Under the pieces are notes generated by a model, which saw only the letters and a list, made by a program, of their open reading frames with translations, had not been told where the DNA came from and did not search any database. Positions 1,380 to 19,953 of a stretch of 20,000 nt of DNA are shown one piece after another (the stretch's first letter is position 1; every line of letters starts with the position of its first letter). Position numbers and translations under genes: made by a program. This stretch comes from an uncultured virus (IMG/VR IMGVR_UViG_3300035162_000505) (lineage: Duplodnaviria; Heunggongvirae; Uroviricota; Caudoviricetes). The stretch is taken from the IMG/VR virus record IMGVR_UViG_3300035162_000505; one strand, 5' to 3'.

Positions 1380-1751
1380 TTAGAATGCGAATGACATACC
1401 GATAGTTGTGTCACCGAAATCTAGATCTCCATCAGAAGATATCTTACCAAAAAGAGACATACCATCAAAACCTAATGGGTAAGTTCCTTTTACGTCTACA
1501 CCTTGGAACACATCTACAGTTGAACCACCATCAAAACCTAATAGGTCGAAGTTGGATGTTACTGATGTGCCGATTCCCCAAACGCTTGTGCTCACTTTTG
1601 GCATTACTTTTAATGCCCAGATGCCTGAGTCAACGTTCATTGAAGTTTCAACTTCTCCACCAAAGTCTAGTCCCATGCTGGAAGAACCTTCGGCTGAAGC
1701 TTGGTTTGCAACTAGAAGTGCTGTTGCTGTTGCGATTACTGCGAGTTTCAT
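1380..1751 (-). CDS. Secreted small outer-membrane beta-strand (porin-like) protein
   Basis: Sec signal peptide (MKLAVIA...ASA|E), amphipathic beta strands, and a C-terminal GMSFAF beta-signal ending in Phe. Confidence 0.65.
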   Translation of the reverse strand: MKLAVIATATALLVANQASAEGSSSMGLDFGGEVETSMNVDSGIWALKVMPKVSTSVWGIGTSVTSNFDLLGFDGGSTVDVFQGVDVKGTYPLGFDGMSLFGKISSDGDLDFGDTTIGMSFAF

Positions 1752-1779
1752 TTATTTTCCTAATATGAAGTTTAAGTTA

Positions 1780-1949
1780 GTGTCACTTTTCTGTTGCTAG
1801 GTAAGTGACCAACCCCCTTTGTTAGGCCGCTATTGCGGTGTAACCAGATGGTGCAAAGTTATTGTTTGCGTTTAGTAGTTTGACTTATAACGAGGTCAAT
1901 CGGTAAACTCCACTTTCATCTTCACACCTGTCGATCCTATTTCATCCCC
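1780..1949 (-). ncRNA. ssrA: tmRNA coding piece of a permuted two-piece tmRNA; tag ANNNFAPSGYTAIAA* at 1869..1822
   Basis: Starts GGGGATGAAATAGGATCGAC (tmRNA 5' acceptor strand and D-loop-like region). Resume context TAAAC-GCA, alpha-type tag ending in AA, and a 3' GTCACTT/AAGTGAC hairpin enclosing CCTAGCAACAGAA. The 3' end is approximate. Confidence 0.92.
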
Positions 1950-2084
1950 ATCATAATGACACTTTTTTCCACAGTGAGTACAGTATAATTTTGTTGGCTT
2001 CCAGTCTTCCATAGTCGCAACTGACCACCACCCCTTACAATCAGTGCAAACTAAATGCCATATTATCTCTCTGTTTCGTTCCAT
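1896..2084 (-). CDS. 62-aa zinc-ribbon protein (CTDC...CTHC) starting in the tmRNA intervening segment
   Basis: AAGGA SD right after the tmRNA CCA, ATG at 2084, and two CxxC pairs. The last 18 codons (stop included) overlap the tmRNA coding piece. Confidence 0.65.
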   Translation of the reverse strand: MERNREIIWHLVCTDCKGWWSVATMEDWKPTKLYCTHCGKKCHYDGDEIGSTGVKMKVEFTD

Positions 2085-2095
2085 AAATGTCCTTA

Positions 2096-2157
2096 TGGTG
2101 GAGATGTCGGGTACCGCCCCCGAGTCCAGTATGTGTCCACGTTGCTTCAACGTTTAC
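2096..2157 (-). ncRNA. ssrA: tmRNA acceptor piece of the permuted gene, CCA encoded
   Basis: T-arm TCGGG-GGCGGTA-CCCGA (alphaproteobacterial-type T-loop), then CATCTCC-A-CCA, which pairs with GGGGATG at 1949 and gives the G3:U alanine determinant. GTAAAC and CACATACTG can pair with GTTTAC and CAGGTGTG in the coding piece. Confidence 0.92.
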
Positions 2158-2164
2158 AGATATA

Positions 2165-2193
2165 CTTATATCACAAAAGGGGAGTCTTGTCCA
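2165..2193 (-). promoter_or_regulatory. Sigma70-type promoter for the tmRNA (TGGACA-17-TATAAG, extended TG)
   Basis: The spacing places the TSS at about 2158, matching the inferred 5' end of the acceptor piece. Confidence 0.65.
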
Positions 2194-2202
2194 CCCCCCT
2201 TT
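2175..2202 (-). terminator. Intrinsic terminator after the Na/Pi transporter gene, overlapping the tmRNA -35
   Basis: AAAGGGGGGT/ACTCCCCTTT stem with a T-rich tail. Confidence 0.6.
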
Positions 2203-2235: not shown

Positions 2236-2718
2236 CTAGAACTTTCCAAGATACCTTGCAATATTTCCAACAAATGGTAGCAGGGCTACAGCCATTAATA
2301 GGTTCATACCCGTATGTGCTACAGCAATTCTTAAAGTATCACCTTTTGGCATACCATCAGATACTAATATTCCAGCCAACCAAATAGTTCCAGTTGTCCC
2401 AATGTTAGCACCAAGCACTGCCGCAATAGCCGCTGGTAATGGTACGGCTCCTGATGCAACTAATGCTATAATAGCAGTTGTTGATAATGAAGAAGACTGC
2501 CATAGCAGAGTCATCACTATACCGCCAACAAACATATAATATACGTTGCTGGTAAAATATGACAAGTGGTCCATGTTACCCATAGATTTCATGCCACCTG
2601 AGAATGTTTTCAAGCCAATGTAGAATATAACCAATCCTACAAGTGCTGTAATAACAGGGTTACCCATATCCATTTTTTTTACTTTCTTTGTTAGTTTCTG
2701 AATAGTAGTTTTTGCCAC
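2236..2718 (-). CDS. Na+/phosphate cotransporter family protein (single-repeat NptA/YjbB-like)
   Basis: WQSSSLST and LGANIGTT signatures, multiple TM helices, AGGAGA SD. Confidence 0.85.
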   Translation of the reverse strand: MAKTTIQKLTKKVKKMDMGNPVITALVGLVIFYIGLKTFSGGMKSMGNMDHLSYFTSNVYYMFVGGIVMTLLWQSSSLSTTAIIALVASGAVPLPAAIAAVLGANIGTTGTIWLAGILVSDGMPKGDTLRIAVAHTGMNLLMAVALLPFVGNIARYLGKF

Positions 2719-2739: not shown

Positions 2740-3609
2740 TTAATAACTTTGGGCTAGACGCCACATTAAATATTCTTTACTCTCTATTGGTTCGTATTTA
2801 TCCTTTGCTTCTATTAGGTTGCTTACTATAGTTCCGGGGGTTGGATCTACAAAGTGTGGCATAGAATATCTGTTTAGATGCATATGACTATTCACCACTC
2901 TATGCTTTGTGCTTTTAAAATAATCGTTGGTCCAACGTTGTAGTAAATCACCTATATTAACAACAACACCATTGTCAGCATAAGGGACTGGATGCCAAGC
3001 ACCACCAAGATCTTGAACTTGTAACCCCGGAACGTCATTAATCTGCCAAAGAAGCGTGATAGTTCCATAGTCGCTATGCTCTCCGATTCTTAATTGTCGC
3101 TCTTCAAATTCCTCTTCTAATTCAAAAACTGATGGATAATGAATAACTCTGGTAGTGTTGTATGGTTTTATATGTGCATCGACAAGAGTATTGCCAGTGC
3201 CAAGTATATCGTCAAACTTTCTTAAAATACGTAATGTCAATTTATCAGCAATGTCTATACTCTGAAGAGCACTTGCTTTAAAGTTTGGAAGATCTTTAGG
3301 CCAAAGGTGATCACCCATCCTAGTATTATTATAGTTAAAGCTTTCTTTTAAATCTTTAGGTGCAGTAGGATCTACATTCTCATCACCCACGACACTATAC
3401 CCCAAGTTGGTATCACCTTCATAGGGGTATTTCATTTTTGTCTCTAGGTCCAAGTCAAAGAATAGTTTCATTTCATCAAACCAGCAACTCATGTCACTCT
3501 GTTCGTTTGAACTCAAACAATTCGTAAAGACCGCAAAGCCCACTGTTGTGTAGGCTCTGCGTATCTGACCGAATGCGTCTCTTGCTTTCAAGTCTATTAC
3601 TGGTATCAT
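2740..3609 (-). CDS. Isopenicillin-N-synthase-family 2OG-Fe(II) dioxygenase
   Basis: IPVIDL N-terminus, HSDYGTITLL, VVNIGDLLQRWTND..KSTKHRV, RYS. Confidence 0.9.
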   Translation of the reverse strand: MIPVIDLKARDAFGQIRRAYTTVGFAVFTNCLSSNEQSDMSCWFDEMKLFFDLDLETKMKYPYEGDTNLGYSVVGDENVDPTAPKDLKESFNYNNTRMGDHLWPKDLPNFKASALQSIDIADKLTLRILRKFDDILGTGNTLVDAHIKPYNTTRVIHYPSVFELEEEFEERQLRIGEHSDYGTITLLWQINDVPGLQVQDLGGAWHPVPYADNGVVVNIGDLLQRWTNDYFKSTKHRVVNSHMHLNRYSMPHFVDPTPGTIVSNLIEAKDKYEPIESKEYLMWRLAQSY

Positions 3610-4676
3610 GACGGTGGTGTAGCCGTAATGCCTTCGACATAGAAGTCCATTGTGTCAAGTTGCATACGTGTTGCGACTTCACCAACTTCTAAGAATACTG
3701 AACCATCTTGCTTATTGATTGGTCCCGTAAATCCATGTAACGTTCCAGCCGAAATAGCATCCTTTACTATCTGTGCTTCTAATGCTACATTTGCTGGCAT
3801 ATTAGTAAACGGTGCCATTTGAACAGCACCCGTATTCATGTGACCAAAGTAATCACCTGTCTTCCATGTGCCATCTAATACTTGACCAACTTTGTCAATA
3901 TAGTATGGACCCCAATTATCAATAGTAGCAGTCAACTGTGCTTTAGGAGCAAACTTAAGTTGATCTGATGCCTGACCAAAACCAACCTTACCAGCCTTTT
4001 CAGCGGCAATCAGTGGTGCTGGTGAGTCTGTATGCTGTGCTACAACATCACAACCTTGTTCCATCATAGATTTAGCGGCATCACCTTCTTTGGCTGGATC
4101 ATACCAAGTATAAACCCACACGATACTTAACTCTACATCAGGGTTCATCTTCTTTGCGCCCAAGTAATATGTGTTAATTTCACGCATAACTTCTGGGATT
4201 GGGAAAGAAGCAACGTAACAAATCTTATTTGTTTTTGTCATCAACCCAGCAATGATACCTTGAACGTGGCGTGATTGATATAACTTCAATCCATAGTTCG
4301 CCGCATTCTCAGACTGCTTGTATCCAGTAGCGTGTTCAAACTTTACGTTAGGAAACTTTTTAGCCACTGATAGAACTGAGTCCATGTAGCCAAAAGAGGT
4401 TGCAAAGATAATGTCTGCACCTTTAAGAGCCATAGCAGTCATTACACGTTCTGAGTCTGGACCTTCTGGTACGCTCTCAACAAAGACTGTTTCAACTCTG
4501 TCTCCATAAGCTTCTTCAACTTGCTGGCGTCCAATGTCGTGACGGTATGTCCAGCCATGATCTCCTGTGGGTCCAACGTATATAAAGCCAACTTTAACTT
4601 TATCCTTTGCTACTGATGAAGTAGTAAGACCTACCATCAGTAATAGTGCAGTTAGCACTGTTGTAAATAGTTTCAA
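3606..4676 (-). CDS. BMP-family ABC transporter substrate-binding protein (purine/nucleoside type)
   Basis: Signal peptide; KVGFIYVGPTGDHGWTYRH, IFATSFGYMD, FPIPEV, WYDPAKE, QHTDS motifs. Confidence 0.9.
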   Translation of the reverse strand: MKLFTTVLTALLLMVGLTTSSVAKDKVKVGFIYVGPTGDHGWTYRHDIGRQQVEEAYGDRVETVFVESVPEGPDSERVMTAMALKGADIIFATSFGYMDSVLSVAKKFPNVKFEHATGYKQSENAANYGLKLYQSRHVQGIIAGLMTKTNKICYVASFPIPEVMREINTYYLGAKKMNPDVELSIVWVYTWYDPAKEGDAAKSMMEQGCDVVAQHTDSPAPLIAAEKAGKVGFGQASDQLKFAPKAQLTATIDNWGPYYIDKVGQVLDGTWKTGDYFGHMNTGAVQMAPFTNMPANVALEAQIVKDAISAGTLHGFTGPINKQDGSVFLEVGEVATRMQLDTMDFYVEGITATPPS

Positions 4677-14306: not shown

Positions 14307-15361
14307 TCGTCAACTGCCTCAACTATAGCATCCATGTCTACCACAGACCTATGCCCTATCTGATACTGTTTCTTTAAGAACTCTTTAAAATCTGTACCAG
14401 AAAGGATTGGACTCCAGAAGGATTCATCAAGAGTGGCATCGTGCCGTACTTTAGATCCAACTTCTCCAGTGTCCTGATCGACCACAGCATACCAGCCATT
14501 GGAAGGCTTAGTAACATAACCGCCAGCAAGAGCGCAATCGAGAAGGCCAGAGTAATGCTTGACACCACCATCCCAAGACACAGTAATAGGTATTTTTGAC
14601 TTCTCTTTAACAAATCTACTTTTTTCAACATTAATAACAAAATGATATCCTTGTATTTCAGTTCCCTTTTTATCTTGTTGCCTTCCAACAATCCAAACAG
14701 TATCGGCTGAATAGGTTATACCAGTGCCACCGCCGACTATATCTTTAGGGAATAATCCGATTTCTTTGTAAGTATGATTAACTGCAATCATAGGTATATT
14801 CTTCATGCTTAAGTATGGTGTTACCATACGGAACAGACTCTTAAATGCTTTGGCACGAGACATATCTGCCACAGACTTTTCGTCCTTTGCATCTTCTAGT
14901 TCTTTCTTAGATGCTAGATTACCAATAGAGTCGATGACAATCATAATGTTATCTTTTTCATCCATAGCCTCTAACTGAGAAATAAGATCAAACTTTAACT
15001 CTTCTACATTAGTAATAGGAGTATGTAGTACTCGACTTGTATCAACATCAAACTGATCAAAGTACGCCTGAGGTGATCCAAACTCTGAATCGTAAAAAAT
15101 AATTACAGCATCAGGTTTTGCTTTTAGCCATGCTGAAGCCATCATTAAAGCAAAGGATGTTTTGAAATGCTTTGATGGACCAGCAAGAACTGTTAGACCT
15201 GATGATAACCCACCATCCACATCACCAGATAGTGCCACATTCATCATAGGCACATCCGTAGGAGTCATCTCCTTATCGTTAAAATACTTGGAATCAATCA
15301 GGACTTCCGTTGTCTTTATCTTGCTGTTCTGTTTCAGTTTGTCCATTATCGAAGTTGACAT
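14303..15361 (-). CDS. uvsX: UvsX RecA-like recombinase
   Basis: AGPSKHFKT Walker A, FYDSEFG, IDSIGNLASKKE, DMSRAK. Confidence 0.95.
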   Translation of the reverse strand: MSTSIMDKLKQNSKIKTTEVLIDSKYFNDKEMTPTDVPMMNVALSGDVDGGLSSGLTVLAGPSKHFKTSFALMMASAWLKAKPDAVIIFYDSEFGSPQAYFDQFDVDTSRVLHTPITNVEELKFDLISQLEAMDEKDNIMIVIDSIGNLASKKELEDAKDEKSVADMSRAKAFKSLFRMVTPYLSMKNIPMIAVNHTYKEIGLFPKDIVGGGTGITYSADTVWIVGRQQDKKGTEIQGYHFVINVEKSRFVKEKSKIPITVSWDGGVKHYSGLLDCALAGGYVTKPSNGWYAVVDQDTGEVGSKVRHDATLDESFWSPILSGTDFKEFLKKQYQIGHRSVVDMDAIVEAVDE

Positions 15362-16232
15362 TTTGTTCTCTTTCTCTATCGTTTAAATCGTATTCACTTC
15401 TAATTTCATTATTAAGCGATTGCACAGTCTTCCATATCGCTGAAGACTGATCAGTCTTAGTATCCACAAAGTTTATAAATGCGGATAAGTCTTTTGGAAA
15501 GCAAGCCCCACCAAATCCATCTTTACCATCAGGTCCGGGGATCTTCATATGACTATGCCCCATACGAGGTTCAGCCATTAGAGCACGTGACAACTGGTTA
15601 TAACTACCACCAAAGTCATCCATAACTTTCTTAAGTTGGTTCATAAACGTTACCTTCATAGAAAGGTAGTTGTTCACTGTATACTTAAAGAAGGATGCTT
15701 CAACAGGAGACATAGTAACAATCTGTGTAGGGTTAGCCAAAGAAAAATGGTTATACAGTCCTTCTAGGTGTTGAGCGGCCTCTTGTTGATGTACACCAAA
15801 GACCCTAAAACGTGCTTCTATCATATCCTGTTTAGAATTACTCTCTTGTAGAAACTCAGGTTCGTATACAATACGACCATCTATACGAGATAGACGATCA
15901 ATAGCATCAGGTGGAACAGTTGACTTGATAACAATAAAAGATTCTGTTAGGTTAACCAACCGCATCACTGCATCATCAATGTCTTTAGTATCCACACCAC
16001 CACCATCTTTTGCTGGAGTTGGGAGACAGATGAATACACACTGAGGTTCCCAATCACAAAGGTCTTGTAGAGTATTATCATTTTCTTTAGGGTCAATTAT
16101 AAACTTGGTAACACCTTGAGTAGAAAAACAGTAGTCCACTGCTTTACCGACAAAACCATGACCAATGATCCCTAGCCTAAAGTTCCTTTCCCTACGTTTA
16201 ACTACGGGTTCTAGTGTCGCTTCTTCAATCAT
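15294..16232 (-). CDS. UDP-glucose/GDP-mannose dehydrogenase family protein, short form
   Basis: GIIGHGFVG Rossmann motif, FICLPTP, IKSTVPP, PEFL, GFGGACFPKD. Confidence 0.9.
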   Translation of the reverse strand: MIEEATLEPVVKRRERNFRLGIIGHGFVGKAVDYCFSTQGVTKFIIDPKENDNTLQDLCDWEPQCVFICLPTPAKDGGGVDTKDIDDAVMRLVNLTESFIVIKSTVPPDAIDRLSRIDGRIVYEPEFLQESNSKQDMIEARFRVFGVHQQEAAQHLEGLYNHFSLANPTQIVTMSPVEASFFKYTVNNYLSMKVTFMNQLKKVMDDFGGSYNQLSRALMAEPRMGHSHMKIPGPDGKDGFGGACFPKDLSAFINFVDTKTDQSSAIWKTVQSLNNEIRSEYDLNDREREQNVNFDNGQTETEQQDKDNGSPD

Positions 16233-16674
16233 TTGAAGTGTCCTTTTCTGCTTCTATATCATACACTCTTTCTCGCAAGTCGCTAGATGAGAATCTATGA
16301 TCTCTCTTATTGTAACGAATTTCTATACCTCTTTTGGCACAGATCTTTCTTCCTGTGAATGTAGTATGCTTATACTCTTCACCTATTATTCTAACATGAA
16401 TCTCAAATAATTGCAAGATATCTTCTACATCTTTTTCGTTTTCATAGGGAATTATTTCATCTACATAACTTACACCTTGTAGTTGTGTCCATCTCTCGAC
16501 CAGAGATTGCACAGGTGCTTTCTTGTCTTTACGGTCTATAGATGGATTTACTTGTAGACCACATATAAGGTGATCACATTTAGTCTTTGCTTCTCTCAGC
16601 ATAGCAATATGCCCTGCGTGTAGTAGATCAAAAGTGCTAAAGGTTATCCCTACAACCCTTTCAGTGCTTTCCAT
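16225..16674 (-). CDS. Glycerol-3-phosphate cytidylyltransferase-like (TagD family)
   Basis: FSTFDLLHAGH (HxGH), YVDEIIPY, RDHRFSSSDLR. Confidence 0.85.
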   Translation of the reverse strand: MESTERVVGITFSTFDLLHAGHIAMLREAKTKCDHLICGLQVNPSIDRKDKKAPVQSLVERWTQLQGVSYVDEIIPYENEKDVEDILQLFEIHVRIIGEEYKHTTFTGRKICAKRGIEIRYNKRDHRFSSSDLRERVYDIEAEKDTSND

Positions 16675-17360
16675 GTATCTTTCCAATCTCTGACATGGAG
16701 TGTAGCCCCATGCTCATATTCTTCTAATGCTTGAGCCAGTAAGAAATCATTCCCACCAACACCCACTTTATCGCCAAAGAAAAATATTCTGTCTCTATCA
16801 TCAAAGTCTTTCAATATCTGTGACTTATCATTTCCTTTAGCAGATATATCCATTCCAGTTTCGCCAGCAACACTAGCAAGTAAATCTGGAAACATAGTAT
16901 TAAAAGCCTTTGCTATCTTAACTCGTTCTGAATATATCTTATCATATTCGTAATATGCTTTACGATCAGTGCTATCAGCATTACGCCCTACAACACTGAA
17001 GTTTATCATACCACATCTTTCTTCAATATGCAACCCCGTTAATGTAGGCCAATCAGATTCATATAGGCATTGATCAAGAAAGTCTCTTGCCATGTCAGGT
17101 AAGACCCATGAACTACTTCTTACATTGCGGTCACCTTCATACACGTCACAACCAGAACAGTTATACACACGTTTACATACGTGGTATATTGGTTCTCCTA
17201 TCTGTTCTATAGTCTTAGGTCTATCGCTTCCCGTAACTAGATACACATCGTGAGTAGGCCATTCACAAAATTTGTGAAACCATGCACCAAATTTCTTGTC
17301 TATTTTACCTCTACTAGGAGTTAAGGTTCCATCTACATCAAAGATAAACTTATCAGCCAT
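16650..17360 (-). CDS. HAD-IIB phosphomannomutase (PMM/Sec53-like)
   Basis: FDVDGTLTPSR, VTGSD, IEERCGMINFSVVGR, FFGDK..GGND. Confidence 0.85.
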   Translation of the reverse strand: MADKFIFDVDGTLTPSRGKIDKKFGAWFHKFCEWPTHDVYLVTGSDRPKTIEQIGEPIYHVCKRVYNCSGCDVYEGDRNVRSSSWVLPDMARDFLDQCLYESDWPTLTGLHIEERCGMINFSVVGRNADSTDRKAYYEYDKIYSERVKIAKAFNTMFPDLLASVAGETGMDISAKGNDKSQILKDFDDRDRIFFFGDKVGVGGNDFLLAQALEEYEHGATLHVRDWKDTWKALKGL

Positions 17361-18399
17361 CTCCGTATACTCTGTTGTGAGTATTGTTCACTCTAACGAA
17401 TGTAGTACACTTAGGTAAGTCTTTTATCTTAGCGGCTCCAACATATGTAGAAGCCGATCTTATTCCACCAAGAATGGCTTGTATAGTAGTTCCGACTTGT
17501 CCTTTGTATGGTAAACTAACCTCTTTACCTTCTGAGGCTCTATAGTCTTTCAGTCCACCAAAGTGTTTGTCGTTGGCAGTCTCTGAACTCATGCCATAAA
17601 AACTGATCTTGTTGTCCACTACTTCTCCACCACCTTCATCATGTCCAGCCAACATACCGCCAAGCATCACAAAGTCTGAACCAGCACCAAAAGCTTTGGC
17701 TATGTCACCAGACGTAGTACAACCTCCATCAGCAATAATATGGCCTGAGAGACCGTGAGAAGCATCAGCACATTCAATAACCGCTGAGAGTTGAGGATAA
17801 CCAACACCTGTTTGTATACGAGTCGTACATACACTGCCCGGTCCAATACCGCATTTAACAATATCCGCACCATTTAAGATTAACTCCTGTGTCATATCTC
17901 CTGTCACAACATTACCCGCTATGATAACTAGATCAGGATAGTTAGAACGTAAATCGTATATAAAGTTACTGAACATCTCTGTGTAACCATTTGCTACATC
18001 TACGCATAGGTATTTAAGTATACCATCAGTAAGTTTGTATACCTTTTTAAACTTTTCTAAATCACTATCTGATGTTCCAATAGACATGGCAACATTCTGT
18101 TGACGATGTATAGTATTCTCTATATCAGATTGGTTAAAGAACTTTGCTAGGTCTTCTGCGCTATATGTCTTTACCAGACAAGTGAAGATATCTAATTTAG
18201 AAAGTGCGTCTGCCATTTCAAACGTGCCGACACCATCCATGTTAGCCGCCATGATAGGAACACCTTGATATATGCGTTCACTATTTCTAAACTTCATGGG
18301 TCTTAACAGATCAACCTCTTTACGAGATTTTAAAGTAGACCTCTTTGGTCTAATAAGAACATCCGAATAGTCTAGTTTTATATCGTCACTAATCAGCAT
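17353..18399 (-). CDS. guaC: GMP reductase
   Basis: DVLIRPKRSTLKSR, AANMD, DVANGY, GIGPGSVCTTR, FYGMSS, YRASEGK. Confidence 0.93.
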   Translation of the reverse strand: MLISDDIKLDYSDVLIRPKRSTLKSRKEVDLLRPMKFRNSERIYQGVPIMAANMDGVGTFEMADALSKLDIFTCLVKTYSAEDLAKFFNQSDIENTIHRQQNVAMSIGTSDSDLEKFKKVYKLTDGILKYLCVDVANGYTEMFSNFIYDLRSNYPDLVIIAGNVVTGDMTQELILNGADIVKCGIGPGSVCTTRIQTGVGYPQLSAVIECADASHGLSGHIIADGGCTTSGDIAKAFGAGSDFVMLGGMLAGHDEGGGEVVDNKISFYGMSSETANDKHFGGLKDYRASEGKEVSLPYKGQVGTTIQAILGGIRSASTYVGAAKIKDLPKCTTFVRVNNTHNRVYGDG

Positions 18400-18736
18400 T
18401 GGTTCCTACCGTCTCTCTTATAATATCATTATGATTAAACTCTGCCCAATATAACTCAAACGCTACACCATCTTCAAGACATTCAAACTGATGATACACC
18501 CCCGGCTTGACCTTAGTATACATCCCAAGTTCAAGTATAGTTTCATCAACCAAGTCATAATCATTTTGCCATACACGAATAAGCATACGTCCAGATTCTA
18601 CATAGAAGCCATTCCACTTAAACTCATGTAGATGTTTTGAACAAATACCGCCTCTATTCATTTCAATACGATGGAACTCTAACGCTCCATTGGCCTCTAC
18701 AAGTTCTGTAGATCCCCATACTTTACCAGCAATCAT
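18389..18736 (-). CDS. Cupin protein (mannose-6-phosphate isomerase-like)
   Basis: KVWG, CSKHLHEFK, PGVYHQF cupin motifs. Confidence 0.75.
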   Translation of the reverse strand: MIAGKVWGSTELVEANGALEFHRIEMNRGGICSKHLHEFKWNGFYVESGRMLIRVWQNDYDLVDETILELGMYTKVKPGVYHQFECLEDGVAFELYWAEFNHNDIIRETVGTNAD

Positions 18737-18745
18737 GTCACTTTC

Positions 18746-19078
18746 CTACTCATAAGTTTCACCAGTGTTGCGAAAGAAGTCTTCACTCCAAAAGGCTTTA
18801 TCATCAATCCAAATATCGTAGTGTTCTTTCTTACCCACACTCAGTTCGTGGAATCTCGCACCCCATTGAATAAGTTGATTGTTGGTTAGCCTATAGTAAT
18901 CAATACCACTTACGACCCCACGTGCAGTCATATATTTAATAGTATGACCAGCATCATACAATGCGTTGACTTTTGCGATACGATCCATCATAGGTTCGTG
19001 TGCCGCATAATCTTTAGTGCCATCTGAGTTCTTGACTTCATTACAAATGGTGCCATCAATATCAATTACATATTTCAT
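18746..19078 (-). CDS. Small capless HAD phosphatase
   Basis: IDIDGTI, MTARG, K..YDIWIDDKA. Confidence 0.8.
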   Translation of the reverse strand: MKYVIDIDGTICNEVKNSDGTKDYAAHEPMMDRIAKVNALYDAGHTIKYMTARGVVSGIDYYRLTNNQLIQWGARFHELSVGKKEHYDIWIDDKAFWSEDFFRNTGETYE

Positions 19079-19079
19079 A

Positions 19080-19259
19080 CTATCTCTCCGCTAACGGCAC
19101 TGATTCTGAAGTGTCATGGTAATCACCATTTTTATAGTAACTTCGGAATGCGATTTCTTTTACTATGCGACCATCTTTCTTCCTATAAGTGATGATCTCT
19201 CTACGCAGAACTCCATCTGTGTCTGCTTCAAATGCGGCCTTAAATGGTCCTTCTGTCAT
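19080..19259 (-). CDS. 59-aa hypothetical protein (MTEGPFKAAFEADTDGVLRREIITYRKKDGRIVKEIAFRSYYKNGDYHDTSESVPLAER)
   Basis: Translated by hand; GAGGA SD; fills the gap. Confidence 0.7.
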   Translation of the reverse strand: MTEGPFKAAFEADTDGVLRREIITYRKKDGRIVKEIAFRSYYKNGDYHDTSESVPLAER

Positions 19260-19269
19260 AATATTTCCT

Positions 19270-19953
19270 CTATCTTATATTCCAACACTCAGCATCTTCT
19301 GGTGTGTTGATTTCAATCCCATCAAACTCAACTTCACGAACATTAATTTTTTCGCCCATTGATATCCATCTAAGTTGTTCTAAGCCTTCATGCTCTTCAT
19401 ACTTGTCTTGAACAGTCCCATACTTCTCAAGCATATTTCTAGAGTATCCATAGACACCTAAGTGATGAGAACCCATGGTTAGACCTCTACCAAACCAATG
19501 TGCTTCTGTATCATTATGAACCATCTTAACACAGTTCTCATCAGATTGCAAGTGCTTTTCCATTTTAGCATAGAGTGTAGATACACCCCCACTATAATAG
19601 ACACCTCTACTCATGTCATTTATTTCGTTTATCATTTTTCCAGTAACATCAGGCATATCGCCTTGCACGTTAATAAAGGTATCAAACTTCTTTAAGAAGT
19701 CTGTTTGAATTGCCCCAGCACATCTCTCTGTGCCATTGTTAAACTCTCTTTTATCTATAATAACTGTACACTTATCGTTGACTGCATTAGCAACCCTAAC
19801 ATCATCTGTAAGAACAAATGTAGGTATTTTAGAAGCCGCACATATATCATGCACTCTTCTGATCATAGGCAATCCATCTAAATCGCATAACGGTTTGCCT
19901 TCAAATCTTTTAGATCCCCATCTAGCGGGTATAAGAATAGCTGATAATGTCAT
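19270..19953 (-). CDS. kdsB: CMP-KDO synthetase (3-deoxy-manno-octulosonate cytidylyltransferase)
   Basis: IPARWGSKRFEGKPL, GTERC, INVQGD, HLGVYGY, LEQLRW, INTPED. Confidence 0.9.
   Translation of the reverse strand: MTLSAILIPARWGSKRFEGKPLCDLDGLPMIRRVHDICAASKIPTFVLTDDVRVANAVNDKCTVIIDKREFNNGTERCAGAIQTDFLKKFDTFINVQGDMPDVTGKMINEINDMSRGVYYSGGVSTLYAKMEKHLQSDENCVKMVHNDTEAHWFGRGLTMGSHHLGVYGYSRNMLEKYGTVQDKYEEHEGLEQLRWISMGEKINVREVEFDGIEINTPEDAECWNIR

Follow-up and report, generated by a model that had tools for sequence, protein, structure and literature searches.

A zinc-ribbon gene in the intervening segment of a permuted phage tmRNA gene, probably translated from the tmRNA precursor

A marine, T4-like phage carries a permuted (two-piece) tmRNA gene on the minus strand whose intervening segment holds an ORF for a small zinc-ribbon protein. 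We consider it likely that this ORF is a genuine phage gene, captured in the loop of the hairpin that the intervening segment forms and translated from the pre-tmRNA. The window analyzed here is a 20,000-nt stretch of an uncultured virus (IMG/VR IMGVR_UViG_3300035162_000505), and all positions refer to it. Its gene context is like that of the pelagimyophages and of the cultured phage Melnitz, with UvsX, a gp41-like helicase, ThyX, and MazG, and a megablast search of the whole window against the GenBank phage collection returned no match.

The tmRNA is a genuine permuted alpha-type tmRNA, with the cut-offs of both covariance models exceeded: RF01849 scored 99.5 bits over 1779-2197 (Rfam gathering score 50) and RF04321 scored 111 bits over 1822-2157 (Rfam gathering score 47), and an Rfam scan of the locus retrieved no models besides the tmRNA ones. 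ARAGORN called a permuted tmRNA at 1731-2189 on the minus strand. By itself ARAGORN undercounts, with Rfam adding two tmRNAs among 20 ARAGORN-negative loci. The parts of the gene are as follows.

1779..2197, minus strand: permuted (two-piece) alpha-type tmRNA, entire gene (Rfam RF01849 and RF04321, ARAGORN)
2096..2157, minus strand: acceptor piece, with the T-arm, the 3' acceptor strand CAUCUCC, the discriminator A at 2099, and the encoded CCA at 2098-2096 (RF04321 alignment and sequence)
1950..2095, minus strand: intervening segment (spacer), 146 nt (sequence)
1779..1949, minus strand: tmRNA coding piece, with G1 at 1949 and the expected RNase P site at 1950/1949 (ARAGORN, Rfam)
1822..1869, minus strand: tag reading frame GCA...GCC TAA, encoding ANNNFAPSGYTAIAA and a stop (ARAGORN gene positions 321-368)

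The tag frame opens with an alanine resume codon and closes with ..AA and a stop. A 7-bp acceptor stem joins GGGGAUG (1949-1943, of which the GGGG of the coding-piece 5' end is 1949-1946) with CAUCUCC (2106-2100) and includes a G3.U pair; in the relative L121 the stem is compensatory, GGGCCAG/CUGGUCC. By analogy with other RNAs of this tRNA-like architecture, RNase P would be expected to cleave at 1950/1949. A blastn search with the tmRNA against GenBank phages retrieved only Melnitz and three roseophages, all as partial matches.

Within the spacer begins an ORF that runs on into the coding piece.

1896..2084, minus strand: nested ORF, 62 codons plus TGA, with the ATG at 2084-2082 and the TGA at 1898-1896 inside the tmRNA coding piece (translation, homologues)
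1962..2084, minus strand: zinc-ribbon domain, codons 1-41, with Cys13 at 2048-2046, Cys16 at 2039-2037, Cys35 at 1982-1980, and Cys38 at 1973-1971 (family alignment, AF2, dN/dS)
1899..1949, minus strand: ORF tail, codons 46-62, within the 5' part of the coding piece (dN vs dS, frameshifts)

The translation of 2084..1896 is MERNREIIWHLVCTDCKGWWSVATMEDWKPTKLYCTHCGKKCHYD, then GDEIGSTGVKMKVEFTD, then TGA. The Shine-Dalgarno (SD) sequence AAGGA occupies 2094-2090, such that SD and AUG lie 2-14 nt past the CCA and the gap from CCA to ATG is only 12 nt. An earlier sequence-only reading of this DNA had described the layout, and on the minus-strand sequence its 146-nt spacer, AAGGA, ATG at 2084, and TGA at 1896 are exact to the base; its statement that the frame has no stop in the spacer and continues into the coding piece likewise agrees with the translation. 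In 500 shuffles of seven other viral spacers of at least 120 nt, a mean of 0.16 of the 7 held an ATG-started ORF filling the spacer, or about 2% per spacer, and on the strength of these shuffles and of its homologues the nested ORF exceeds chance expectation.

The nested layout is present in the window and in 10 other contigs (L121, which equals L162, along with L122, L123, L124, L161, L163, L164, L165, and L166). In the window and six of these loci ARAGORN calls a tmRNA that encloses the ORF, and every nested relative that it calls has a spacer of 146 nt; the remaining four loci are truncated by contig ends, yet alignable. Among the relatives, the zinc-ribbon part of the ORF is 92-100% identical at the nucleotide level, the acceptor piece 63-98%, and the coding piece 47-91%, the lowest coding-piece values being partly due to alignment gaps. 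Over the 45 codons compared, in sequences that are related and not independent, dN/dS is 0.08-0.35 in most pairs and 0.47 and 0.64 in two. For the ribbon domain, dN is 0.02-0.07 versus a dS of 0.20-0.43, and the variable sites of codons 5-41 number 4, 4, and 12 at codon positions 1, 2, and 3. Relatives retain the start codon as ATG, or as TTG in L122 and L164, and have AAGGA or AAGGG after the CCA. The frame, start codon, and four cysteines are intact in 7 of the 8 distinct nested sequences with tmRNA divergence of up to ~50%, while in the eighth, L165, the frame is interrupted by a TGA at codon 21. Conservation of the SD and the four cysteines across homologous loci, together with dN/dS, had been proposed earlier as a check on this ORF, and the outcome was favorable. 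These comparisons indicate that the nested ORF is a conserved protein-coding gene under purifying selection.

The tail behaves differently from the domain. Among the relatives its dN roughly matches or exceeds dS, its frame is shifted in L123, L124, and L165, and the D47P change in the L121 tail is the acceptor stem's compensatory change. Judged by dN versus dS and by the frameshifts, the tail is conserved as RNA and shows no constraint at the protein level. Selection on the protein would be expected to set domain and tail apart in just this way. Among relatives the ORF differs less than the tmRNA does, which raised the idea of a recent horizontal transfer of the cassette; this idea was dropped as unnecessary because synonymous divergence resembles acceptor-piece divergence (0.26 and 0.29, respectively, for the window versus L124).

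The nested protein is predicted to be a C4 zinc ribbon of ~40 residues with its CxxC knuckles on beta-hairpins. The AF2 model consists of beta-hairpins with strands at residues 6-13, 19-24, and 32-34 and a pLDDT of 81-87 over residues 11-40. Across 49 aligned members, E6, H10, C13, C16, C35, C38, and G39 are invariant, and the family signature reads E-x3-H-F-x-C-x2-C-x-G-W-W-S-I-A ... W-K-P-K-K-L-Y-C-P/T-H-C-G. By profile similarity the ribbon is a member of a numerous family of small phage proteins: the search retrieved 964 cluster representatives with an E-value of 1e-3 or lower, 131 of them at E<=1e-10, with homologues reaching down to ~32% identity. The family consists mostly of free-standing ORFs, 45-134 aa long, and several members directly precede a tmRNA gene (alpha-type or beta-type) or a tRNA gene (tRNA-Pro). 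The longer members, of 83-131 aa, matched no additional Pfam domain, and a search for longer proteins found no fused forms of the ribbon, which is weak evidence.

Across the members, the matches listed to named families were all below threshold, as the Pfam zinc-ribbon families Zn_ribbon_8, DUF5817, DUF7573, and Zn_ribbon_10 gave only scores under their gathering thresholds; the best for the window protein was DUF7573, at 17.6 bits versus a cut-off of 30.2. A PHROGs search returned nothing, a tblastn search of the 62-aa protein against the GenBank phage collection gave no match, the ESM Atlas returned only unnamed viral clusters, and the best match of a PDB profile search was an RNA-polymerase zinc ribbon (E=2e-4). 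The structural comparison that the sequence-only reading had suggested came back empty, as Foldseek found no match at E<=1e-3 in the PDB or BFVD. With no named family or fold matched, function lends no support to the reading of the ORF as a gene, and our guess is that the ribbon binds nucleic acid or protein during host takeover.

We also considered and rejected an obligatory partnership between the ribbon and tmRNA. A T-arm pattern scan listed 120 viral tmRNA loci, 80 of them with 1.5-kb flanks, and the ribbon occurred in 0 of the 120 among the matches listed. Conversely, only 10 of 40 viral contigs with the ribbon had a tmRNA anywhere, two of them at 23 kb, and ribbon contigs of 79-127 kb had no tmRNA.

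Upstream of the acceptor piece, one further feature bears on how the ORF might be transcribed.

2165..2193, minus strand: promoter-like site, TGGACA (2193-2188), 17 nt, then TG-n-TATAAG (2173-2165) (by eye)

The tmRNA model starts ~8 nt downstream of this site, which overlaps with a G-rich hairpin and T-run 3' of the upstream Na/Pi-transporter-like gene. In the matching alignment columns, relatives have TTGACA/TTGACT-17-TATAAA/TAATAT-like hexamers. A consensus scan of the minus strand over 1600-2400 listed no sigma-70-like sites, and the promoter-like site of the window was left out because its second hexamer ends in G. Since there is a promoter-like site upstream of the acceptor piece and none was found inside the gene, the locus is best read as proposed earlier, with the pre-tmRNA serving also as an mRNA. 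RNA data came from six runs with part of 1700-2300, of which four were inspected, as assembled contigs rather than reads. The deep contigs align only to the conserved ends of the tmRNA, ~1930-1951 and 2094-2127, and have 8-26 other letters where the 146-nt spacer would stand, which identifies them as different tmRNAs whose spacers are short. The coding piece of the source phage or a near relative is spanned by three shallow contigs, with the spacer lying outside them.

The two ends of the spacer can pair with each other.

2085..2094, minus strand: spacer helix, 5' strand (AAGGACAUUU), which includes the SD AAGGA (covariation, folds)
1955..1964, minus strand: spacer helix, 3' strand (AAGUGUCAUU), which overlaps ORF codons 41-44, K-C-H-Y (covariation, folds)

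Between the 3' strand and G1 stand the 5 nt AUGAU (1954-1950). Across 66 distinct viral spacers, the helix register was paired in 87% of cells versus 61% with shuffled partners, and the helix is found in both the MFE and centroid folds. This covariation indicates that the spacer ends form a 10-bp helix with the ORF in its loop, and because the SD is one strand of this conserved helix, it would be occluded in the folded precursor.

In the reading that we favor, the intervening-segment hairpin took up a zinc-ribbon gene in its apical loop. Lacking its own promoter, the gene would depend on the one upstream of the acceptor piece and be transcribed within the pre-tmRNA. Ribosomes would load at the SD and AUG, most likely during transcription, when the helix's 3' strand has yet to be made. 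They would then translate the ribbon, pass over the position where RNase P is later to cut, and terminate at the first stop codon in frame (UGA, 1898-1896), this read-through appending a tail with no relevance as protein. A given precursor molecule would serve as an mRNA only until it is processed, with the RNase P cut at G1 ending its state as a complete mRNA. The co-transcription, the timing of ribosome loading, and the competition with processing are what we infer here.

A more elaborate account, which we regard as unlikely, is that the pre-tmRNA is bifunctional, with ribosome traffic on the spacer timing the folding and cleavage of the acceptor stem and with cleavage yielding a self-tagged non-stop message. 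The phage would in that case sense the host's translational state or its capacity for trans-translation, and it would time its tmRNA supply together with a set of small host-takeover proteins. The position of ribbon family members beside tmRNA and tRNA genes would then reflect this coupling or a direct role with tRNA-like RNAs.

We are distinctly doubtful of a feedback loop, in which the cleaved spacer with its SD and ORF is a non-stop mRNA, tmRNA rescues the ribosomes stalled on it, and the ribbon is tagged and degraded, so that the yield of stable protein would report tmRNA maturation or activity. The spacer-encoded part ends ...HYD, and the read-through product would end ...HYDGDEIGSTGVKMKVEFTD. 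The position of the stop fits this idea, being 51 nt past the predicted RNase P site in the window and beyond G1 in 8 of 8 distinct nested zinc-ribbon ORF sequences, in Melnitz, and in 5 of the 11 other ATG-started spacer ORFs. The family member L141 (also L143 and L233) likewise crosses an RNase P site, that of a tRNA-Pro gene, and ends 10 nt into it. However, the missing stop is explained by the reading frame: at the conserved 5' boundary of the tmRNA, UGAU followed by GGGGnnGAAAUAGG, two of the three frames meet a stop, at -4 and +10, and the zinc-ribbon ORF has none in the spacer because it uses the third frame, which has no boundary stop. In addition, 6 of the 11 other ORFs stop within the spacer, the free-standing zinc-ribbon relatives have ordinary stops, and the tails, of 48 to 75 aa, vary in length through tmRNA indels. 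As is known from tRNA processing, the spacer after cleavage is a 3' trailer open to exonucleases, and because of this exposure it may be too short-lived for translation.

Small ORFs are general in long phage spacers. Among tmRNAs chosen without regard to ORFs, ATG-started ORFs fill 7 of 7 spacers of at least 120 nt, 10 of 14 of at least 100 nt, and 11 of 19 of at least 90 nt, against shuffle means of 0.16, 0.88, and 1.68, respectively, and 0 in an antisense control. The spacers of 106 cellular alphaproteobacterial tmRNAs are as short as had been supposed, at 3-88 nt with a median of 28 nt, and 0 of the 106 reach 100 nt. In three further families of spacer ORFs dN is well below dS, with a dN of 0.13 versus a dS of 0.63 (L009/L034), 0.018 versus 0.20 (L003/L080), and 0.044 versus 0.44 (L079/L067), and the spacer ORF of L016 has free-standing homologues that adjoin a free-standing zinc-ribbon gene. 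The cultured OM43 phage Melnitz carries a two-piece ssrA (PMC9004378), whose 142-nt spacer has an SD and a 41-codon ORF with the frame open beyond G1. Only the tmRNA ('SsrA') is annotated over this SD-led ORF in the GenBank record, and the words 'intervening', 'spacer', and 'zinc' are absent from the Melnitz paper's text (PMC9004378). The GC-rich roseophage spacers, of 109-111 nt, hold hairpins only and no ORF. Two further ideas about these spacers were rejected, as the glutamine riboswitch of Melnitz is located 3' of the tmRNA (L362, 1393-1441) and not inside the spacer, and the likeness between the spacer ORFs of Melnitz and G001 is a mere 7 of 12 residues. The housing of unrelated small ORFs in long spacers is apparently a wider, undescribed habit of phage tmRNA genes.

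This habit could point to a frame that acts in cis, with ribosomes on the spacer holding the helix and acceptor stem open and the peptide being secondary; an abundance of free ribosomes would then hold back tmRNA maturation, whereas scarce or stalled ribosomes would favor it. We give this account little credence. It fits the SD and last ORF codons being the two strands of a covarying helix beside the acceptor stem, the unrelated ORFs at the same position in many phage tmRNAs, and the turnover of cassettes between near-identical flanks (a 40-nt spacer with 7 codons in L117 versus a 140-nt spacer with 45 codons in L003). Nevertheless, there is purifying selection on the protein in four families, and the zinc ribbon and the L016 ORF also occur as free-standing genes, which argues that the proteins matter in trans, although an additional cis effect may exist.

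It is very improbable that the ORF is an untranslated passenger, that is, a piece of a small-gene region recombined into the discarded spacer loop, tolerated there, and slowly decaying. The in-frame stop of L165, the sequestered SD of the folded precursor, and the ORF-less roseophage spacers would suit a passenger, but the intact frame, start, and cysteines of the other seven nested sequences despite the divergence of the tmRNA, the excess of variable third positions, and the contrast between domain and tail do not. Finally, a sigma-70 scan does not cover the middle and late promoters of T4-like phages, but for the mRNA and the tmRNA precursor to be different molecules, through a promoter inside the acceptor piece or separate transcription of the coding piece, is extremely unlikely given the absence of a sigma-70-like site in the region scanned and the mere 12 nt between CCA and ATG, upstream of which is highly constrained T-arm and acceptor sequence.

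The intervening segment of a permuted tmRNA is conventionally seen as disposable, non-coding filler, and tmRNA finders and annotators pass over it. If the spacer ORFs are expressed, there is a class of small phage proteins that has systematically gone unnoticed, and the pre-tmRNA, as translated in our favored reading, would be a new type of dual-use transcript whose coding and structural roles are mutually exclusive per molecule. Cultured Melnitz on OM43 strain H5P1 would then be a natural system for competition between ribosomes and RNase P and would also suit the idea of a tmRNA gene that generates its own non-stop substrate. The spacers additionally offer a comparative handle on the reason marine and freshwater phages carry tmRNA.

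Two-piece tmRNA genes of Alphaproteobacteria, such as Caulobacter ssrA, were reportedly described by Keiler et al. in 2000. The gene of the source phage shares with Caulobacter and Melnitz ssrA the order of acceptor piece with CCA, intervening segment, and coding piece, and with alpha two-piece tmRNAs the alpha-type Rfam match, the G3.U pair, and an ANxN...AA tag. In contrast to cellular alpha-type tmRNAs, with their spacers of 3-88 nt, its spacer is 146 nt long and protein-coding.

The intervening sequences (IVS) in the 23S rRNA of Leptospira and Coxiella contain ORFs for 'S23p' IVS proteins. There, too, a protein gene sits in a precursor segment that is excised without ligation, leaving a fragmented mature RNA. 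The phage case differs in its tmRNA host, in encoding a C4 zinc ribbon rather than the S23p four-helix bundle, and in a nested ORF that extends past the processing site into sequence of the mature RNA; no 23S-rRNA IVS-protein family was among the Pfam matches. Some group I introns of tmRNA and tRNA genes bear homing-endonuclease ORFs. Group I introns in tmRNA genes are described in the available portion of PMC11915505, and they resemble the spacer as additional removable sequence in a tmRNA gene that is able to hold a gene. Unlike them, the spacer has no intron fold, splicing, or ligation, it is a natural gap in the gene, and its ORF does not encode an endonuclease. The same portion of PMC11915505 reports intervening sequences of permuted tmRNAs with a tRNA-Ala gene and a repetitive element in cellular MAGs, which likewise tolerate insertions of functional or mobile DNA; that cargo is RNA or repeat, protein-coding cargo going unmentioned in that portion, whereas the phage spacer encodes a protein.

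Generic C4 ribbons (Zn_ribbon_8/FmdB, DUF5817, DUF7573, and the ribosomal eS27/eL42 type) have the same two CxxC knuckles ~18 residues apart, whereas the phage family has a signature of its own and matches them below curated cut-offs. SgrS/SgrT, RNAIII/hld, and SR1/SR1P each combine a riboregulator with an mRNA. As in these, a single transcript would have an RNA role and code for a small protein, but in SgrS-type RNAs it is the mature RNA that is translated, whereas the coding part of the pre-tmRNA would be a by-product removed in maturation, and because of this removal the two roles would exclude each other in any one molecule.

The sequence-only reading placed a small four-cysteine zinc-ribbon gene in the spacer of a permuted tmRNA, i.e., the intervening segment between the acceptor-piece CCA and the tmRNA 5' G (G1, 1949), and all of its coordinates match the minus-strand sequence. 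ARAGORN finds a permuted tmRNA at 1731-2189(-) with the tag ANNNFAPSGYTAIAA followed by a stop, and the Rfam scores are far over threshold for both tmRNA_permuted (111 bits) and alpha_tmRNA (99.5 bits). The acceptor stem, GGGGAUG/CAUCUCC, contains a G3.U pair. The features of the locus are as follows.

2099, minus strand: discriminator A (sequence)
2098-2096, minus strand: terminal CCA of the acceptor piece (sequence)
2095..1950, minus strand: spacer, 146 nt (sequence)
2094-2090, minus strand: AAGGA, Shine-Dalgarno (SD) motif (sequence)
2094-2085, minus strand: 5' strand of the spacer helix, AAGGACAUUU (comparison and fold)
2084-2082, minus strand: start ATG of the zinc-ribbon ORF (sequence)
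2084..1896, minus strand: zinc-ribbon ORF, 62 residues plus TGA at 1898-1896 (translation)
1964-1955, minus strand: 3' strand of the spacer helix, AAGUGUCAUU (comparison and fold)
1949-1946, minus strand: 5' GGGG of the tmRNA coding piece (sequence)

The peptide first proposed is exactly residues 1-45 of the 62-residue translation, and past the spacer the frame does read on, via GDEIGSTGVKMKVEFTD, to the TGA.

A protein search returned six relatives, three of which share residues 1-45 and then diverge completely, as expected from frameshifts in non-coding tmRNA sequence. Scans with a family alignment gave, among the matches listed, 40 loci in IMG/VR and 80 in metagenome contigs (numbered with the prefix L). 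ARAGORN places the ORF within a permuted tmRNA in the window, L121 (the same contig as L162), L124, L161, L165, and L166; in L122, L123, L163, and L164, contig ends interrupt the locus, yet the same junctions align. The nested layout is thus kept in homologous phage ssrA loci, and the spacer is 146 nt wherever complete. Nucleotide identity across these loci is 92-100% in the ORF, 63-98% in the acceptor piece, and 47-91% in the coding piece, and the tags vary (ANNNFAPSGYAALAA, ANNNYNLAA, ANDNYAPEMALAA). Over the 45 spacer codons, pairwise dN/dS is mostly 0.08-0.35 (two pairs have 0.47 and 0.64), and variable sites in codons 5-41 number 4/4/12 at codon positions 1/2/3. In the ORF tail, in contrast, dN is about equal to or greater than dS, L123, L124, and L165 have frame-shifting indels, and L121 replaces D47 with P through two changes that, with changes in the 3' strand, preserve acceptor-stem pairing. 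This contrast argues that selection acts on the ribbon at the protein level and on the tail at the RNA level. The exception to conservation is L165, whose ORF, otherwise 92-98% identical, is interrupted at codon 21 by an in-frame TGA (TCA in every other copy); it is either a dead copy or a contig or assembly error.

Across 49 aligned members of the protein family, E6, H10, C13, C16, C35, C38, and G39 are invariant, the consensus is K-E-x-I-W-H-F-x-C-x2-C-K-G-W-W-S-I-A-x6-W-K-P-K-K-L-Y-C-P/T-H-C-G-K, and the C-terminal tails are unrelated. When 1.84 billion cluster representatives were searched with a profile, 964 matched at E<=1e-3 and 131 of these at E<=1e-10; almost all are 45-150 aa long. 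AlphaFold2 with the family alignment predicts a zinc-ribbon-like set of beta-hairpins (mean pLDDT 73.5; core 81-87, tail ~60). Neither the window protein nor its relatives reached a named Pfam family, PHROGs gave no match, a fold search of PDB and BFVD returned nothing at E<=1e-3, and the Atlas neighbours are unnamed viral clusters only. One locus (L147, 2669-3387) carries a tandem pair of zinc-ribbon paralogues of 105 and 134 aa with a 4-nt overlap.

Small ORFs also occupy other phage tmRNA spacers. A T-arm pattern scan of IMG/VR gave at least 120 loci, and the 80 examined with 1.5-kb flanks contain 66 permuted tmRNAs (ARAGORN), whose 59 distinct spacers measure 5-164 nt. To be counted, an ORF had to start with an ATG at most 30 nt from the CCA and to have no stop ahead of the last 20 nt of the spacer.

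Viral spacers with an ORF, by minimum spacer length
At least 120 nt: 7 of 7; mean of 500 shuffles 0.16; antisense 0
At least 100 nt: 10 of 14; mean of 500 shuffles 0.88; antisense 0
At least 90 nt: 11 of 19; mean of 500 shuffles 1.68; antisense 0

The spacer ORF is real, and the phenomenon is wider in scope than first supposed. These ORFs are preceded by SD-like motifs (UAAGGA, GAAAGG, UGAGGG, UGGAG, UAGGAG), and the proteins of different spacer ORFs are mutually unrelated. Three more ORF families with two or more members have dN well below dS: 0.13 and 0.63 for L009/L034, 0.018 and 0.20 for L003/L080, and 0.044 and 0.44 for L079/L067. Free-standing homologues of the L016 spacer ORF (53% identity) occur in L168, L170, and L171, ~250 nt upstream of a free-standing zinc-ribbon gene within a run of small genes. 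Cargo differs among closely related tmRNAs tagged ANNNFAPSGY..: the zinc ribbon, the L043 ORF, or the L003 ORF. In L117, the L003 spacer appears in a 40-nt, 7-codon version with near-identical flanks. Long spacers are not always coding, since four of the 14 of at least 100 nt lack an ATG ORF, and the permuted tmRNAs of two roseophages, Rhodobacter phage RcXuper (L363) and Ruegeria phage V10 (L364), have GC-rich spacers of 109-111 nt that are plain hairpins. The GenBank records of these two phages annotate no feature over the permuted tmRNA genes. Cellular alphaproteobacterial spacers are short, as the sequence-only reading had held: the same pattern scan over one genome per prokaryotic species gave, among the matches listed, 106 permuted alphaproteobacterial tmRNAs with spacers of 3-88 nt (median 28) and none of 100 nt or more.

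A parallel comes from the OM43 phage Melnitz (L362, MZ577097.1), which is in culture. Its 142-nt spacer has UGGAG, an ATG, and a 41-codon SD-led ORF (MFKWLSK...SVYDGGELGSTGRNRKV, then stop) at 1091-1252, within the annotated SsrA at 979-1431. This ORF runs into the coding piece in the frame that the zinc-ribbon ORF also uses. The record annotates just the tmRNA over it, and the glutamine riboswitch of Melnitz is outside the spacer, 3' of the tmRNA. This ORF offers a culturable test system.

Comparison among related viral tmRNAs revealed that the spacer ends are mutually complementary. In 66 distinct spacers of at least 23 nt, spacer nt 2-11 pair with the 10 nt ending 5 nt before G1 in 87% of cells, versus a shuffled-partner mean of 61% (maximum 65%), with several pair types at each helix position, and in the window the helix is present in both the MFE and centroid folds of the precursor. 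With the ends paired, the ORF would occupy the apical loop of a hairpin in the precursor, and this hairpin would stack close to the acceptor stem. The 5' strand of the helix is the SD itself, and the 3' strand is ORF codons 41-44. The SD is thus predicted to be occluded once the precursor folds, and it would be accessible only until transcription has advanced about 130 nt further to make the 3' strand, or when a ribosome keeps the helix open.

We consider it probable that the ORF is a captured small gene expressed from the pre-tmRNA, with a promoter immediately 5' of the acceptor piece driving the precursor that carries it. In relatives, TTGACA-17-TATAAA-like hexamers occupy the same alignment columns; the promoter-like site in the window, TGGACA-17-TG-n-TATAAG, was not accepted by the scanner's rule. 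Reaching the stop would require translation of the unprocessed precursor, and RNase P cleavage at G1 would end full-length translation. A purely cis-regulatory role, with translation acting on precursor folding, would fit the arrangement of helix and SD, but it is at odds with selection on the protein sequence and with the free-standing homologues, and we regard it as unlikely.

The sequence-only reading had also proposed a loop in which the non-stop spacer yields a product tagged by the tmRNA. The conserved boundary (..UGAU, then GGGGnnGAAAUAGGAUCGAC from G1) places a UGA at -4 in one frame and a UAG at +10 in another; the third frame (D-G-x-E-I-G-S-T-G) is open and is used by the zinc-ribbon, L016, and Melnitz ORFs. 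The zinc-ribbon ORF has no stop in the spacer because it uses this open frame. The 11 ATG-started spacer ORFs stop at -18, -15 (three), -4 (two), +10 (three), +27, and +87 relative to G1. With six stops inside the spacer and five beyond, a stop past the processing site is frequent though not universal, and needs no special selection. The loop is superfluous for explaining the anatomy, and we likewise give it little credence. That the ORF is a dead passenger seems still less likely. A separate transcript is very improbable, a consensus scan having found no minus-strand promoter site within the tmRNA gene.

The majority of family members are free-standing small genes, and a notable share of the family adjoins stable-RNA genes on the same strand.

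L240: zinc-ribbon ORF directly upstream of a permuted tmRNA, its end overlapping ARAGORN's span
L205, L206, L217/L218: ORF about 110-115 nt upstream of a permuted tmRNA
L178, L225, L189, L202: ORF 0.27-0.84 kb upstream of a permuted tmRNA
L139: ORF 2995-3162, its end overlapping the start of a beta-type permuted tmRNA model at 3120-3453 (Rfam; missed by ARAGORN)
L141 (also L143; L233, in the metagenome set, is the same contig as L141): 45-aa ORF 2995-3132; tRNA-Pro 3123-3199

The ORF beside tRNA-Pro ends 10 nt inside the tRNA gene, thus crossing an RNase P site. Rfam found tmRNAs in two of 20 ARAGORN-negative loci scanned (L139 and L176), and the L139 case implies that phage tmRNA surveys by ARAGORN alone undercount. 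The permuted tmRNA of L217/L218 (3265-3852) has a predicted 33-residue tag (ANANTTGTVKVTMGKNFRFGRQAANDSAVLLAA, then stop), and its 159-nt spacer shows no clear ATG ORF. An obligatory link between ribbon and tmRNA was rejected: just 10 of 40 viral contigs with the ribbon have a tmRNA match anywhere, in two of them 23 kb off, contigs of 79-127 kb have none, and the ribbon is absent from all of the at least 120 viral tmRNA loci picked by T-arm pattern. We read the placement as probably a shared neighbourhood, a region of RNA genes and small ORFs, with repeated tight packing. The adjacency of zinc ribbon and stable RNA may be more than this.

The tmRNA of the window neighbours genes for UvsX, a gp41/DnaB-like helicase, ThyX, MazG, endonuclease VII, endolysin, and a heptose/nucleotide-sugar cluster, and these surrounding genes mark the window as that of a T4-like marine myophage of the pelagimyophage/Melnitz kind. 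The GenBank phage set contains no near-identical record. A 160-aa ORF at 2236-2718(-) partially matches the Na+/Pi-cotransporter family (PF02690; one repeat only) and resembles a truncated or minimal phage version; its 3' end has a G-rich hairpin and T-run overlapping the tmRNA promoter-like site. At 2740-4676(-) are a 2OG-Fe(II) oxygenase and a Bmp/PnrA-like ABC substrate-binding lipoprotein homologue (PF02608, E=3e-48), likely auxiliary metabolic genes. A sugar-nucleotide run at 15294-19953(-), comprising a UDP-glucose-dehydrogenase-like gene, two cytidylyltransferases, a PMM-like phosphatase, an IMPDH/GMP-reductase-like gene, a cupin, and a phosphoheptose-isomerase-like gene, suggests a phage-encoded heptose or nonulosonate-type pathway. 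The nearest of the virus records searched, G001 (L241), is a close relative, carrying 2OG-oxygenase genes of 86-90% identity as two tandem copies and no PF02690-type ORF at the corresponding position. Its region 1400-1746 has a tmRNA coding piece that looks intact and is preceded by an SD-led 27-codon ORF. No T-arm/CCA acceptor piece is recognisable upstream (RF04321, 32 bits only), and this tmRNA may be degenerate or have its acceptor piece elsewhere.

A tRNA-Ala gene and a repetitive element have been reported in permuted-tmRNA intervening sequences (PMC11915505); the main-text passages of that paper around "intervening", "permuted", and "phage" do not mention protein-coding cargo. The main text of the Melnitz paper (PMC9004378) does not contain the words "intervening", "spacer", or "zinc". 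We found no description of protein genes in tmRNA intervening segments in the openly available full-text literature searched, and within that coverage they appear undescribed. Their kin among known systems are genes housed in the excised parts of stable-RNA precursors and dual-use transcripts.
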